This document shows positions 7,982 through 16,153 of a stretch of DNA of 64,000 bases, piece by piece. Source of the DNA: Escherichia phage Lw1; sequence record KC801932. One strand, given 5' to 3'. The position numbers and the translations under genes were made by a program. The notes under the pieces were generated by a model that saw nothing but the letters and a program-made list of their open reading frames with translations, ran no database searches and was not told the DNA's origin. Position 1 is the first letter of the stretch; the number at the start of each line of letters is the position of its first letter.

Positions 7982-8236
7982 TTAAAAAAGATGCGTTAAA
8001 TGTCCTGCATTGCTGGGGTATTCGACGTAATCACCACGGAAGATGTTCAAATCTTTATCAAATTTAAACCCATGTCCTTGAACATCTTCATGACGAGATA
8101 CATAAGATACTCCATACTTTTCAAGGTCTTCCATATACATTTCGGTGATTCTCTTCGCTTTATCCAATCCGCGTCCCTCAAATCGAGAACGTCGATAATT
8201 CGCAAGAAGAAACGCATATAATTCTTCGTATGTCAT
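7982..8236 (-). CDS. hypothetical protein (84 aa)
   Basis: ORF; overlaps upstream methyltransferase gene end. Confidence 0.45.
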   Translation of the reverse strand: MTYEELYAFLLANYRRSRFEGRGLDKAKRITEMYMEDLEKYGVSYVSRHEDVQGHGFKFDKDLNIFRGDYVEYPSNAGHLTHLF

Positions 8237-9144
8237 TTCAATACCTTTCTGATTTGTTTCGCTATGGCTTCGATCACGGGTATTGAAACTGAATTTCCCG
8301 CTTGACGATATGCCTGTTTTTTACTATCCGGTATGATAAATGAATCAGGGAATCCCTGCAAACGAAAACACTCACGGGGAGTAAGTCTTCTGGGGTTCTT
8401 TCCTTCCTGCAACACCAGACATTGAACGCCGTCCTTGTAATACTGCTGGGTTATCGTCCCAGTGTGCGTAGAATCGCTTGTGACGGCCTGATAACCAAAC
8501 CCCTTACCATTCGCCTTGTTTCGTTCCTTACGCTCTCTAAAGCCTTTCCACGCGTTATCTGATAGGGTGTATGAATCATCAGCATCTTCGAGGATATCGC
8601 CCACTCTCGTAGGGGTACGCGGAGGAACAGGAAACGAAAAGAATACATCATCCAGGAAGCAAACAATAAACACACGTTCACGTCTTTGTGGTAGTCCGAA
8701 ATCTTTTGTATTCAGTCGTTGATAGAATACGTTATATCCTTCGGCCTCCAGAAGCCCGTAAATCGTTTTAAACGTCTTCCCCTTGTCATGGGTTAGTAGT
8801 TCAGGCACGTTCTCAAAGAACAGCACACGGGGCTTTTTAGCGCGTATGATGCGGAGTATTTCAAAGAACACAGTACCGCGAACATCATCGAACCCCAGTT
8901 TTAATCCTGCTTTACTGAATGCCTGACACGGGAACCCAGCCAACAGGATATCGTGATCAGGTACTTCGGTTTCTTTTATCTGGAACAGATCTCCCTGTAG
9001 GTTATCATTGCCCCAGTTTTCGATATATGTTTGCTGTGCGAACTTGTCGATTTCAGACGTTAAAAGGCATTCGACACCGCCGAACGCCTTATCAAATCCT
9101 AATCGAACCCCGCCCACACCAGCACAGAGGTCAATTATTTTCAT
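8233..9144 (-). CDS. DNA (cytosine-5)-methyltransferase, Dcm-like
   Basis: all canonical C5-MTase motifs in order: I DLCAGVGG, IV GFPCQAFS, VI FENVPEL, VIII QRRERVF, IX RLTPRECFRLQGFPDSF, X GNSVSIPV. Confidence 0.9.
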   Translation of the reverse strand: MKIIDLCAGVGGVRLGFDKAFGGVECLLTSEIDKFAQQTYIENWGNDNLQGDLFQIKETEVPDHDILLAGFPCQAFSKAGLKLGFDDVRGTVFFEILRIIRAKKPRVLFFENVPELLTHDKGKTFKTIYGLLEAEGYNVFYQRLNTKDFGLPQRRERVFIVCFLDDVFFSFPVPPRTPTRVGDILEDADDSYTLSDNAWKGFRERKERNKANGKGFGYQAVTSDSTHTGTITQQYYKDGVQCLVLQEGKNPRRLTPRECFRLQGFPDSFIIPDSKKQAYRQAGNSVSIPVIEAIAKQIRKVLK

Positions 9145-12750: not shown

Positions 12751-13809
12751 TTAAAGTCCAGTAAACGCAACGATAATCTGATAGTGGTCATCGAAGAACT
12801 CACCACGTTTCTGTTTGACTTCGTGCATAGGCATCCAGAACGCCTCTGCTGCATCGTCAGCGCCTCCCATAATACGGGGCAGACTTCCATCATTGTTAGG
12901 CTCTAACTTGATGTATTGCGCTACAGTCGGTTTTGAGAAGTGTACGGAACGCTTCGGATGGTCGAACAGCATAGAATTGCGGATTGAACCACGGATAACC
13001 TTTTCAGGAACCTTGATCCGAACTTCTTCGAGCAATTCGCGGATCGCACAATCCAGGAACGTTTCATTCGCGTTTTTGTGTCCACCTGGCAGGGCTAATG
13101 CGCCTTTACCTGGTGCAAACTTACGACGAATCACTAACACATGGTTATTACAAACAACCACGCTATCACCAGTACAACAGTTTAACGCGTCGGGGTATGG
13201 GTACGCTTTGAACTTCTCCAGTTCATCTTCCCATTTCTCGAACTCGTAGTACAAGCGCCAGAACGTATCGGTCATCATCCATCCGTTAAGAGAACCCACG
13301 ACAGCAGCAGGAACATAACGGGCGATCTTCTCGTCCCATCCATTTTTATGTAAAAAGATGGTTGGACGCAGGTCGGTAGCAGATAAATCTTTGCCGTCAA
13401 CCTTAACCGGATCAACCGGAACATGAGTCCATCCGAACGCTTTAAGCCAGTACGAATCAGCATCTTTTTCGTAACCGTAGATCGCGATGTTATCGCCTTT
13501 GGTTTCGTCGATTGCTGTACGAACAGAGGTTTTCCATTTTTCTTCATTGTAAAGGTAATCTGGAATCGGCTTGAATTGCACACGGGCTACATCTTCGTAT
13601 TTGAACTCAGACAGTAACCAGCTTGTAATCATACGTTCCCGTTCGGTTGCCGTCAGCGGGTTTAAAACGTTAGGGTAAGCATAAGCTGAACCCAGGAGGA
13701 TATAAACGGTCTTCGACTCTTCCAGTGCTTTACGCACCATTGCCGCGTGACCATTATGGAAGGGTTGGAATCTGCCAATTACGACAGCTTTATCAAATTT
13801 GTATTTCAT
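12751..13809 (-). CDS. bifunctional NMN adenylyltransferase / Nudix hydrolase (NatV/NadM-like)
   Basis: N-terminal (H/T)xGH nucleotidyltransferase motif GRFQPFHNGH; C-terminal Nudix box GGHKNANETFLDCAIRELLEEV; start set at MKYKFDK with GTGGAG RBS. Confidence 0.8.
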   Translation of the reverse strand: MKYKFDKAVVIGRFQPFHNGHAAMVRKALEESKTVYILLGSAYAYPNVLNPLTATERERMITSWLLSEFKYEDVARVQFKPIPDYLYNEEKWKTSVRTAIDETKGDNIAIYGYEKDADSYWLKAFGWTHVPVDPVKVDGKDLSATDLRPTIFLHKNGWDEKIARYVPAAVVGSLNGWMMTDTFWRLYYEFEKWEDELEKFKAYPYPDALNCCTGDSVVVCNNHVLVIRRKFAPGKGALALPGGHKNANETFLDCAIRELLEEVRIKVPEKVIRGSIRNSMLFDHPKRSVHFSKPTVAQYIKLEPNNDGSLPRIMGGADDAAEAFWMPMHEVKQKRGEFFDDHYQIIVAFTGL

Positions 13810-13834: not shown

Positions 13835-13933
13835 TCATAAAACAGACGCAATAATCAATACACCAAGCAAACCGCCAATAAAGCCGAAGAATAGCGAAAT
13901 GAAGATAGATAAGATGATCTGTTTTATGTTCAT
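13835..13933 (-). CDS. possible 32-aa hydrophobic peptide
   Basis: ATG..TGA ORF below ORF-track size cut-off; single predicted TM helix; low confidence. Confidence 0.25.
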   Translation of the reverse strand: MNIKQIILSIFISLFFGFIGGLLGVLIIASVL

Positions 13934-13985
13934 TATAGTATTCTCGTTCTAAGAATCAAGCCCCCAGTGCGGGGGCTTTAAAATC

Positions 13986-14912
13986 TTATTTACGGGAATC
14001 GAAAATCACTTTACCAGCGTAATCCGAACCCATGACAGTCTGAGGTACACCACCTTTATAACGGGTAGAGTAGTTCATCTGTACATCCAGTTCTTTCCAG
14101 CGGATCATTTCTGGGGTAATTGTGCGTTGCAGTACGGCGTTAGCCTCCGCTTCTTTCTTCGCTGCGTACAGTTTAGCATCAGCATCACGTTCGTTGGCAA
14201 TCGCATCGTTTTCACGCGCCTGACGATTTGCTTCCGCTTGTTTTACCTGTTGCTGTGAAGTCTGTTCGACTTTTGCCAGTTCCGCACGAGCGGCGTTAAC
14301 CTGTTCTTCACGAATTTTCGTGTTAGTTACCTGTTCCATGATAACATCCGGCAGGGTGATATCCTGCAAGAATACCTGTTTCACGGTGTAACCGTAAGGA
14401 CGCGCATACTCTTCGACTTCCTGTTGAATTGCGGTCTGCAACTGGTTCTGGATCTTAGCATCAAACAGATCCTGTGCTTTTGGAACCGATTTGCCGAACT
14501 CGCGAACGGTTGACAGCAGTTTTTCGGTTACATACTTATCCAGTGCCTGTTCCTGGTCTCCCGCGTTGATGCGGTTGATAGGCGCTTTGTTACCGTCAAA
14601 TTGCAGCATAACGGTCATATCAACAGTGGATTTAAACTTATCCTGTGAAGGAACCTGCAATTTATCGAACTTCTTCGCAATGTCTTTCGTGCTGAAAGTA
14701 TCGAAATCAGCCAGCGGGTTTACGATATGGAAACCAGGCAGTACAGGTTTCGGAGAAACCTTACCCATGAAGGTCTGAGTTTTGACCGTGCCGTCCTGTA
14801 CTACTGTAAAGGAGTTCGGAACCAGCCACAGTGCGGCTACTACGCCCAGAGCGATCAGAGTGGTTTTCTTCGGGTTGTTCAGGATAGTATTCATATTCAT
14901 AGTATGTCTCAT
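13986..14912 (-). CDS. SPFH/band-7 (prohibitin-like) domain membrane protein
   Basis: N-terminal TM helix LIALGVVAALWLV, then SPFH-like core and long Ala/Gln/Glu-rich coiled-coil tail. Confidence 0.55.
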   Translation of the reverse strand: MRHTMNMNTILNNPKKTTLIALGVVAALWLVPNSFTVVQDGTVKTQTFMGKVSPKPVLPGFHIVNPLADFDTFSTKDIAKKFDKLQVPSQDKFKSTVDMTVMLQFDGNKAPINRINAGDQEQALDKYVTEKLLSTVREFGKSVPKAQDLFDAKIQNQLQTAIQQEVEEYARPYGYTVKQVFLQDITLPDVIMEQVTNTKIREEQVNAARAELAKVEQTSQQQVKQAEANRQARENDAIANERDADAKLYAAKKEAEANAVLQRTITPEMIRWKELDVQMNYSTRYKGGVPQTVMGSDYAGKVIFDSRK

Positions 14913-14976
14913 TTAAGTTTATGTTTCAATTCGATAGTTATTCTATCATCACCATTCAGCTTGTCAAATACTTTTT

Positions 14977-15360
14977 TTAAGAAAGTTTTGTCAGCTTGTA
15001 AATCGTTTGATAGCACAAGCCTTTTATCTCGTCCAGGATGTTCTTCAATGAACTATCAACTGCGTCGTAGATTTCTTCGGCTTCGGCGGCTATTTTACGG
15101 AGATACGCTACCGTGTCAAGCACATTTTCAACTTTTAATACGGGTTTGTACCTTCCGGTAATGCCTATATGGATTTCGGTGAACTTATCGACCAGATCCT
15201 GCATATCTTCGTAAAACCCTTCATATGCTTTATGCTGTGAGTATGAACCAGTCGCAAAGTGTGCGCTGTGCATATACGTAACAGACATTAGGCATGTGCC
15301 GATAAAGGCATCGATCTTACTTGTGGTATCGCGTTCTGTAATTTCGTTAAACGTCTGCAT
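14977..15360 (-). CDS. hypothetical protein (127 aa)
   Basis: ORF. Confidence 0.45.
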   Translation of the reverse strand: MQTFNEITERDTTSKIDAFIGTCLMSVTYMHSAHFATGSYSQHKAYEGFYEDMQDLVDKFTEIHIGITGRYKPVLKVENVLDTVAYLRKIAAEAEEIYDAVDSSLKNILDEIKGLCYQTIYKLTKLS

Positions 15361-15370
15361 CTTTCATCCC

Positions 15371-15652
15371 TTATGAACGATGAATAGAAGCGAATTCAGT
15401 TGCTACCCTAAGCCCTAAGCGTTTGCATTCAGGTTCAGATTTACACTGTTTCTGCTGCCATTTTCGTTCCATATAATTATAGAAAAGTTCACTTGTATTT
15501 ACGCTGGGAGGGATGGTGTCTAGATACACCTGTAGCGCTGCATTGATGTAGTAGTCGAATTCTTTCGGTACGACTGAATCATCTGCGTGTGATGCTGGAG
15601 ACAAGATTAACAAACCAAACATCAGCGCTTTGGATATGCGTTTAATGTTCAT
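15371..15652 (-). CDS. small secreted protein (signal peptide MNIKRISKALMFGLLILSPASHA)
   Basis: signal peptide with AxA cleavage motif; TATAAATA on minus strand at 15713-15720. Confidence 0.5.
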   Translation of the reverse strand: MNIKRISKALMFGLLILSPASHADDSVVPKEFDYYINAALQVYLDTIPPSVNTSELFYNYMERKWQQKQCKSEPECKRLGLRVATEFASIHRS

Positions 15653-15760
15653 AAGCAATTTCTCTACGTGCTTACGGATCACCAATAGACCCGTTCCTGT
15701 ATATATTTATAGCAAAAAAGGGGCAATAAGCCCCCTTATGTTAAATCGATATAAAAATAA

Positions 15761-16153
15761 TCAGGTTATGTCATACCAGCATAAGCTACGCTCATATGCG
15801 CGGATCTTGTTGGCGTTTTCGATGTTTTCATCCCACCCAATTACACCAGCTTTCATCCGGCGCAATTCCTGACGCATCTTTTCACGAACTTTTGAATCTA
15901 TGCGCTTCTTTGCAATTTCGAGCATAACGGAAATGTCACCATGTGCTTTGTTACCGTCGCGGTTCACGTTCTTATCAAACCGGATATATGCGCAACCTGA
16001 TTTGTGTTTCCAATTGGTTGTATACCAACGTAAACCATCAGGGCTTTCCCCGTGTTGTGCATAATACTGTGAAAATGCTTTTGTCTCTTCGATCTGTTCG
16101 ATAGAGGACTTATCACGGGCTGGAACATATTTGTTACGGTAAGTACGGCTCAT
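15761..16153 (-). CDS. hypothetical protein (130 aa)
   Basis: ORF followed by hairpin + T6 terminator at 15722-15745. Confidence 0.45.
   Translation of the reverse strand: MSRTYRNKYVPARDKSSIEQIEETKAFSQYYAQHGESPDGLRWYTTNWKHKSGCAYIRFDKNVNRDGNKAHGDISVMLEIAKKRIDSKVREKMRQELRRMKAGVIGWDENIENANKIRAYERSLCWYDIT

Follow-up and report, generated by a model that had tools for sequence, protein, structure and literature searches.

In Escherichia coli, HflK and HflC form a heteromeric pair of SPFH (band-7) proteins that modulates FtsH, and QmcA is the SPFH member of an SPFH-NfeD pair with YbbJ. Erlin, prohibitin and HflK/C are anchored in the membrane by their N-terminus and carry their domain on the far side of it, whereas the SPFH domain of QmcA is cytoplasmic.

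Phage-encoded relatives of these proteins have been on record for some time. The SPFH/band 7 annotation of the phage gene described here dates to 2006 and 2010: a Pfam SPFH match was listed for RB43ORF139c, 44RRORF098c and Aeh1ORF064c (Nolan et al. 2006; PMC1524935), and the record of Escherichia phage RB16 names the product, 304 amino acids long, a [quoted passage not shown] The SPFH identity of our gene is already known, being in the public annotation of the near-identical RB16. A preliminary description of this DNA had implied that an SPFH protein in a phage is a novelty. It is not, given the RB16 annotation, the 2006 report for RB43, 44RR2.8t and Aeh1, and a protein-level search that finds a relative encoded in 722 phage records from the T4-like, T5-like and N4-like groups. 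T4 itself may lack the gene. According to a 2026 paper, the presence of an SPFH gene in phages is still unexplained (PMC13239085), and our literature searches found no functional study of a phage SPFH protein.

The window, by which we mean the whole stretch of 64,000 nucleotides that was analysed, comes from Escherichia phage Lw1 (KC801932), an RB16-like T4-type phage (Pseudotevenvirus). The 1.4-kb region of interest is 97.9% identical to that of Escherichia phage RB16 and 90-95% identical to those of Citrobacter phages Miller and CfP1 and of RB43. All genes in the region from tk to the NadM gene are oriented on the minus strand. The features are as follows.

16768-16184, minus strand: tk, the first gene of the listed order
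Between tk and rI, minus strand: an ORF of 130 amino acids, from the ORF list
15371-15685, minus strand: rI antiholin gene (PF24205 Antiholin, E = 4e-26; annotated as rI in RB16)
14977-15360, minus strand: rI.-1, directly upstream of the SPFH gene (PF19174 DUF5856, E = 2e-25; annotated as rI.-1 in RB16)
14940-14967, minus strand: sigma-70-type promoter-like site, TTGACA-16-TAGAAT with a TG extension (11 of 12 consensus positions)
13986-14912, minus strand, probable start 14900: SPFH/band-7 gene (Pfam PF01145, phrog_200, AF2 model, Foldseek)
13958-13978, minus strand: GC-rich hairpin AAGCCCCC-GCACU-GGGGGCUU, 7 nt past the SPFH stop codon
13932-13959, minus strand: sigma-70-type promoter-like site, TTGATT-16-TATAAT (10 of 12 positions), directly after the hairpin
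13835-13933, minus strand: predicted gene for a hydrophobic microprotein, 32 codons (conserved frame, coding-type substitutions)
12751-13809, minus strand: gene for a NadM-type bifunctional NMN adenylyltransferase/Nudix protein (Pfam NUDIX and CTP_transf_like)

The ORF list confirms the two central ORFs, on the minus strand, with the coordinates and the peptide sequence that the preliminary description had given. The product of the NadM gene matches the NCBIfam family PRK05379 at E = 1e-78, a score that nevertheless stays under the equivalog cutoff. We consider it somewhat probable that the locus as a whole holds an accessory SPFH cage protein and a separate, translated microprotein, and that the two are not a dedicated pair. 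The SPFH gene and the peptide gene would then be neighbours in the variable tk-rI region, each an early accessory gene in its own right.

The SPFH protein: identity, start and membrane orientation

The large ORF encodes a genuine SPFH/band-7 protein. Residues 46-220 match Pfam Band_7 (PF01145) with 57.5 bits (cutoff 23.6 bits; E = 2.3e-15), and among the PHROGs the protein falls in phrog_200 (E = 1.5e-79). In an AF2 model made with 36 homologues (mean pLDDT 79.9), a transmembrane helix (residues 14-33) is followed by an SPFH alpha/beta domain (35-186) and by two helices (189-264 and 267-284), the first of them rich in Ala, Glu and Gln (A16, E10 and Q9 among 76 residues). When this model is compared with the PDB by Foldseek, the top matches are all SPFH proteins (erlin1/2, prohibitin, HflK/C, stomatin, QmcA, flotillin), with a probability of 1.00, E-values down to 6e-15 and approximately 270-320 aligned columns. 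The preliminary description had read an N-terminal transmembrane helix, an SPFH-like region and an Ala/Gln/Glu-rich coiled coil from the translation. All three are borne out by the model, Pfam and Foldseek, which agree in predicting the SPFH fold.

By sequence, the family is about equidistant from QmcA, prohibitin and HflC. The protein has no NCBIfam match at E <= 0.01 and no match to a PADLOC defence system. A search of 1.84 billion representative proteins gives no more than 583 matching clusters at E <= 1e-3, and we therefore regard the family as a small, distinct clade of SPFH proteins.

The length of 308 amino acids in the preliminary description is correct for the ORF read from its first ATG (14912) but probably not for the protein. 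This ATG is not preceded by a Shine-Dalgarno sequence, is not conserved, and adds four codons that are not conserved either. The relatives use as their start the codon that corresponds to Met5 (14900), which has GAGA in front of it and gives a product of 304 amino acids. Met5 is likely the true start. The name “lipoprotein,” which RefSeq attaches to this protein and which originates in phrog_200, was considered and rejected. There is no lipobox cysteine, and since the number of cysteines in the whole protein is zero, the label is wrong.

The protein is predicted to be anchored in the membrane by its N-terminal hydrophobic segment. Hydropathy reaches its maximum (1.96) at residue 19, and a segment of this kind is predicted in 244 relatives longer than 250 amino acids. 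Which side of the membrane does the SPFH domain face? In 176 of these 244 family members there are more Lys and Arg residues in the N-terminal flank of the segment than in the C-terminal flank, with the reverse in 34 (means 2.23 vs 1.23), and the bias is stronger in the T5 and Aeromonas orthologues. In the phage protein itself, the flank that immediately precedes the helix contains R2, K15 and K16, and the 15 residues that come next after the helix have a net charge of 0. Judged by the positive-inside rule alone, this distribution suggests a cage that faces the periplasm, as in HflK/C and prohibitin.

In the opposite arrangement, the SPFH domain would be cytoplasmic, as in QmcA, YqiK and flotillin, and the protein would scaffold microdomains on the cytoplasmic face of the membrane instead of building an HflK/C-like cage. 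The sequence comparison offers this arrangement some footing, with QmcA the best match among solved structures (E = 7e-6 with the single sequence, E = 2e-7 with the profile), as do the 34 family members of opposite charge bias. We nevertheless think it unlikely in view of the 176 relatives with the N-flank bias and of the three basic residues that precede the helix in the phage protein; in addition, Foldseek places erlin, prohibitin and HflK/C at least as high as QmcA. The C-terminal tail of the model is of low confidence, yet it contains a conserved motif, GGVPQTV. This motif and the long helix, seen in a single-chain model, are compatible with assembly into a ring or cage.

In the reading that we prefer, with the domain in the periplasm, the product would be a bitopic inner-membrane protein composed of a short, positively charged N-terminus, one transmembrane helix and the SPFH domain. 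The C-terminal part would consist of a coiled-coil helix of approximately 75 residues, a second helix and the conserved tail. All SPFH proteins of solved assembly (HflK/C, QmcA, prohibitin, erlin, stomatin and flotillin) suggest by analogy that such a protein would probably build a homo-oligomeric ring or cage and so enclose a patch of the inner membrane, and the charge distribution would have this cage face the periplasm. Its likely role would be to sequester or shield membrane proteins during infection. A first guess is that it controls access to a membrane protease such as FtsH or keeps the membrane intact and energised until programmed lysis. The exclusion of other phages is a further candidate role.

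Distribution and context of the SPFH gene

The carriers of the SPFH gene include approximately 180 enterobacterial T4-like phages and several hundred T5-like phages, the latter at 76-80% identity. Identity falls to approximately 57% in the T4-like phages of Aeromonas and to approximately 30% in Vibrio phages, one of which is N4-like. Homologues are also found in bacterial chromosomes, in single copy, in Morganella and Providencia (51-54%) and in Methylococcales and Methylophaga (approximately 38%). The near-identical copies in T4-like and T5-like phages lie on unrelated backbones, and we therefore attribute them to horizontal transfer.

Does the gene have a partner? A tblastn search finds no second SPFH paralogue in the 64-kb window, and none of the relatives examined has more than one copy of the gene. 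Pfam gives no NfeD match in the adjacent genes or in the ORF of 32 amino acids. For the chromosomal homologues of Morganella and Methylophagaceae, the comparison was made on lists of the surrounding ORFs, in which no obvious partner gene appears. Judged by gene content and sequence, the phage SPFH family is a stand-alone clade, in whose neighbourhood we found neither an NfeD gene nor a second subunit.

In T5st0, a viable mutant, a deletion of 8.5 kb removes the whole T5 orthologue (76% identity). At the wild-type T5 locus, identity to st0 is 100% as far as the annotated recombination site and the match stops there; the st0 region gives no SPFH hit. The T5 orthologue is thus dispensable for lytic growth. 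The SPFH function would be accessory and not essential.

In Aeromonas phages the SPFH gene is found beside genes for a pilin-like protein and a lipoprotein, and in the window it is found beside the gene for the periplasmic antiholin RI. Such neighbours are compatible with an envelope-directed role of the SPFH protein and prove nothing.

With its 722 records in at least three phage families, and with 76-80% identity across unrelated T4-like and T5-like backbones, the SPFH gene is widespread. It poses a modest question about how large virulent phages manage the inner membrane of the host. The points added here are that the “lipoprotein” label is wrong, that the T5 orthologue is dispensable, and that the SPFH clade is distinct and stands alone.

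The 32-codon ORF and its neighbours

The small ORF downstream of the SPFH gene has the predicted product MNIKQIILSIFISLFFGFIGGLLGVLIIASVL. The peptide is of the single-pass hydrophobic type, with one Lys near the N-terminus, a hydrophobic stretch of 27 residues, a GxxxG-type glycine motif (G17/G20/G21/G24) and no hydrophilic tail. Among the 152 ATG-started ORFs of 28-45 amino acids in the six frames of the window, it has the highest GRAVY value (2.10).

The ORF is intact in all 22 of the T4-like loci that we fetched, among which it occurs in 10 different DNA sequences that encode 6 variants of the protein. The sole change of length is a clean indel of one codon in Yersinia phage JC221, and the position of the stop codon is conserved. 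The substitutions are of the kind expected for coding DNA: dN is 0.072 and dS 0.87 in comparison with Slopekvirus, dN is 0.23 and dS 1.72 in comparison with JC221, and dN/dS ranges from 0.08 to 0.13. The 17 differences from Slopekvirus fall 6/0/11 on codon positions 1/2/3 (binomial p = 0.0014 for 0 of 17 on the second), and the variable columns across lineages are distributed 15/5/21. Synonymous codon changes number 35 in the peptide frame; the two other frames have 5 and 1. The frame that the preliminary description had picked out is thus conserved in relatives, with a coding-type pattern, and is therefore more than a chance ORF. From this pattern we conclude that the ORF is a real, conserved gene for a predicted membrane microprotein.

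Could the ORF nonetheless be untranslated? The segment would then be a terminator-promoter intergenic region plus the 5′ leader of the NadM mRNA, and its translation would be hydrophobic only since the DNA is T-rich. A strong promoter-like -10 hexamer does lie over the ATG, from which transcripts would begin inside the ORF; the Shine-Dalgarno sequence is weak (GAG, 9 nt upstream); and several curated records, those of RB16 and RB43 among them, leave the ORF unannotated. Such a segment would, however, be hard to reconcile with the low dN/dS, the near-invariant second codon positions, the excess of synonymous changes in frame, an only indel that removes or adds exactly one codon, and the conserved stop. 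The start region is also unpaired in the predicted fold. We regard an untranslated segment as very improbable.

Searches of Pfam, PHROGs and PADLOC assign the peptide to no family at a significant level, and NCBIfam has no match for it at E <= 0.01. Two candidate identities were rejected. One is a LydA-type holin (PF16083): the cutoff of this family is 28.4 bits, and the only variant with any hit reaches 16.1 bits (E = 0.012). The other is a remnant of a TM2-domain protein (PF05154), for which there is no Pfam hit at E <= 10, and BLASTP aligns 8 residues, F(V/T)GGLFG(V/I). The preliminary description called the ORF unannotated, which is true of RB16, RB43, GAP161, JC221 and Taquito; the annotations of Klebsiella phage VAC66 (ORF231) and Escherichia phage UPEC03, however, include it as a hypothetical protein. 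We suggest that it merits annotation as a conserved membrane microprotein.

The signals around the two genes bear on how they may be expressed. In the promoter-like site upstream of the SPFH gene, both hexamers are kept in nine T4-like relatives, with a variable spacer; the site is absent in JC221, where the SPFH gene abuts rI.-1. The site fits early transcription. Between the SPFH and peptide genes, the 71-nt region of the hairpin has a predicted folding energy of -22 kcal/mol (z = -4.9 vs shuffles). The stem is conserved and the loop variable, and in JC221 the stem differs in sequence yet pairs. Because the U-tail is weak, a terminator scan did not call this hairpin, which looks like a leaky intrinsic terminator or like a stem that stabilises the RNA. 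The second promoter-like site has a -10 hexamer that overlaps the start codon of the peptide (TATAATG). It is a perfect TTGACA-16-TATAAT in the Slopekvirus relatives; UPEC03 has a deletion of the -35 hexamer, and JC221 lacks the element. Since this candidate internal promoter overlaps the ATG, its transcripts, if it is active, would lack the start codon of the peptide. Translation of the peptide would then need read-through from the SPFH promoter, tying its expression to that of SPFH. Inspection by eye led us to reject a middle promoter of the MotA type, and likewise a late promoter, in front of the peptide, as neither spacing nor sequence fits. On the other side, the NadM gene starts 25 nt past the stop codon of the peptide and has a GGAG ribosome-binding site; both the spacer and the GGAG are conserved.

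Does the microprotein belong with SPFH or with NadM? We searched for the peptide in IMG/VR and metagenomes with a degenerate DNA pattern. The pattern is found in 7 IMG/VR and 6 metagenome contigs, all of which have SPFH upstream and NadM downstream, and within the clade that has the peptide the coverage of the entire 1.4-kb region is 80% or more in 173 of 177 records. As SPFH, the peptide and NadM never separate in these data, they cannot tell an association of the peptide with SPFH from one with NadM. No such peptide follows SPFH in 30 T5-like loci, in the Aeromonas T4-like phages, or in the N4-like and other Vibrio phages. No small membrane partner is common to the SPFH genes of T5-like, Aeromonas, N4-like and other Vibrio phages and of bacterial chromosomes. 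The co-location of peptide and SPFH pointed out in the preliminary description therefore stands, but the functional pairing that it implied does not follow: the T5-like, Aeromonas and Vibrio SPFH loci lack the peptide, and in the window a hairpin and a promoter-like element intervene. A functional SPFH-peptide pair is possible but unsupported, and we would not expect it.

It is tempting to picture the microprotein as dedicated to the SPFH cage, either as its client or as its regulator: a minimal replacement for NfeD with its glycine-zipper helix inside the ring. The two genes are adjacent in the 22 fetched T4-like loci and in 13 environmental contigs, and both products are predicted membrane proteins. 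Solved cages among the Foldseek neighbours enclose transmembrane partners (QmcA-YbbJ, 8z5g; HflK/C-FtsH, 7wi3 and 9cz2). An active internal promoter would leave the peptide translatable only from the SPFH transcript. Other small membrane proteins also occur near SPFH, namely the pilin-like protein in Aeromonas phages and a transmembrane protein of 70 amino acids in the N4-like Vibrio phage. These small neighbours are, however, mutually unrelated from lineage to lineage, and orthologues with 76-80% (T5-like) and 57% (Aeromonas) identity do without the peptide. The hairpin between the two genes is conserved, and a product of 32 amino acids without a family match is too short for the soluble domain of NfeD. 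Small membrane ORFs are common in the early regions of phages. A dedicated client of the cage is accordingly a doubtful proposition.

We think it quite unlikely, too, that the microprotein serves the NadM/Nudix protein, for example by tethering it to the membrane or by regulating it, with the adjacency to SPFH being incidental. The arrangement of the genes would agree with this: the peptide is separated from NadM by the conserved 25-nt spacer with no hairpin in it, while the hairpin and promoter-like site divide it from SPFH. There are also partial parallels in other phages. In Aeromonas T4-like phages, a TM2 protein of 77-81 amino acids (PF05154, E = 8e-20) precedes NadM with a 1-nt gap, and in Stenotrophomonas phage YB07 an annotated CDS of 84 amino acids with a hydrophobic segment lies before NadM. 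No small membrane ORF, however, precedes NadM in Cronobacter S13, Vibrio ValKK3, Acidovorax ACP17 or Aeromonas AsFcp_1, and the similarity between the peptide and the TM2 protein is confined to the 8 residues given above. A small membrane ORF before NadM in 3 of 7 lineages, with unrelated proteins, is at the level of chance.

We prefer to see the microprotein as separate from SPFH. The ORF would be genuinely translated into a single-pass membrane microprotein. Since it lies after the hairpin and just before NadM, the peptide is more naturally the first cistron of a downstream unit, or a read-through product, than a partner of SPFH. The most far-reaching proposal would join the two genes: a periplasmic SPFH cage that captures a host machine such as FtsH, or that shields against superinfection or a membrane-targeting defence, with the microprotein of the RB16/RB43/Slopekvirus clade as its dedicated transmembrane client or regulator. 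We consider this decidedly improbable; if it were true, the glycine-zipper microprotein would be the smallest known SPFH partner. As they stand, our findings leave current understanding unchanged.

Comparison with known systems

More distant proteins with the same full-length fold are found in other phages and in many giant viruses, including Vibrio phage pVa5, Rhizobium phage Pasto, Streptomyces phage StarPlatinum, marseilleviruses, tupanviruses and pandoraviruses (Foldseek against BFVD, E = 2e-18 to 1e-12). Because their identity to the phage protein is only 14-22%, we regard them as separate acquisitions from the superfamily. Neither the BFVD entry names nor the papers found give a role for them.

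Among cellular proteins, HflK and HflC of E. coli share with the phage protein the N-terminal anchor, the SPFH domain, the long coiled coil and a C-terminal segment. The structural match is full-length (E approximately 1e-12 to 1e-13; 7vhq, 9cz2, 7wi3), and for the phage protein the charge bias favours the same orientation, N-terminus in and C-terminus out. The differences are that HflK/C is a heteromeric pair whereas the phage has one gene, and that the NCBIfam models of HflK and HflC do not match the phage protein at E <= 0.01. The profile of the phage family matches HflC marginally (E = 1e-3), in the coiled coil only.

QmcA-YbbJ of E. coli, as the pair with the best sequence match, also resembles the locus in its gene order, in which a single SPFH gene is followed by the gene for a small membrane protein. 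The phage peptide, however, has no match to NfeD and lacks the length for its soluble domain. The predicted orientation of the phage protein is opposite to that of QmcA, and a hairpin lies between the phage genes.

Much closer are the SPFH proteins of T5-like phages, annotated as “putative membrane protease” in a T5 fragment (AY734508) and as “band 7 domain-containing protein” in other Demerecviridae. They have the same architecture and are 76-80% identical over the full length. Their genes, in contrast, lie among tRNA genes on an unrelated backbone, with no peptide and no NadM downstream.

The closest described relatives are RB16p130 and RB43ORF139c, together with the orthologues in Pseudotevenvirus, Slopekvirus and other related T4-like phages (phrog_200). 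This is the same gene, with 99.7% amino acid identity to RB16 and 97% to RB43. In RB16 and RB43 it occupies the same slot, from rI.-1 to NadM, and there is no real difference between these genes and the one described here.

The promoter-like site and the NadM gene

The 32-codon hydrophobic microprotein ORF lies between the SPFH gene and the NadM gene, and its start codon is overlapped by the -10 hexamer of a promoter-like site.

Window 13932-13959 and 13931-13933 (-): promoter-like site and microprotein start codon
Window 12751-13809 (-): NMN adenylyltransferase/Nudix gene, bifunctional, NadM-type

In Slopekvirus relatives this site is a perfect TTGACA-16-TATAAT, and coding selection is clear in the microprotein ORF whose start codon meets the hexamer. 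In RNAs begun at the putative promoter, the microprotein ORF would form a leader ahead of NadM that cannot be translated.

Acidovorax phage ACP17 and Stenotrophomonas phage YB07 each have a nicotinamide phosphoribosyltransferase gene after their NadM homologue, and the two genes form an NAD-salvage pair. Pairs of this type have been linked to the countering of NAD-depleting defence. In Aeromonas phages 31.2 and 50AhydR13PP, a single base separates the end of a TM2-domain protein from the NadM start codon (coordinates internal to each fetched locus).

L056 1754-1999 (31.2) and L057 1766-1999 (50AhydR13PP): TM2-domain membrane protein, 77-81 amino acids (PF05154, E=8e-20)

Two further ORFs of the window

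Window 15761-16153 (-): conserved 130 amino acid ORF between tk and rI (phrog_7774, function unknown)
Window 8233-9144 (-): 303 amino acid ORF with PCQ and ENV motifs

The shorter ORF gives a weak PADLOC match to the SduA/DUF4263 model (E=0.0028). The motifs of the longer one are typical of C-5 cytosine DNA methyltransferases, and it is probably the counterpart of a methylase that Nolan et al. 2006 listed for RB43 (PMC1524935).

SPFH homologues and their surroundings

After the SPFH gene, Aeromonas T4-like phages encode a 72-75 amino acid protein whose N-terminus bears a type IV pilin-like methylation motif (PF07963, E=6e-8), and then a 202 amino acid protein with a lipobox; together they make up a small cluster of envelope proteins.

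L043 3445-4276 (Aeromonas phage 44RR2.8t) and L042 3487-4323 (phiAS4): SPFH-downstream proteins

Three bacterial-labelled assemblies encode an SPFH protein of 83-92% identity on contigs the size of phage genomes (approximately 174-178 kb), which are probably phage DNA.

L061, P0002, P0033: Flagellimonas marina (L061, 178,077-bp contig), Enterobacter asburiae, Klebsiella pneumoniae "plasmid"
L073 4001-7200: chromosomal SPFH homologue of Morganella morganii, 52% identity

The Morganella homologue stands alone, preceded by a long non-coding stretch; downstream are a 91 amino acid glycine-rich ORF and then a large ORF that, by eye, looks like an HlyD-type export protein.

T5 also has an SPFH orthologue. 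Comparison of the T5st0 locus with L028 shows that the 8.5-kb st0 deletion, in the tRNA region, takes in this gene.

L132 5675-5684: T5st0 locus (AY692264)

T5st0, a viable strain in wide use, is therefore a natural knockout of the SPFH gene.
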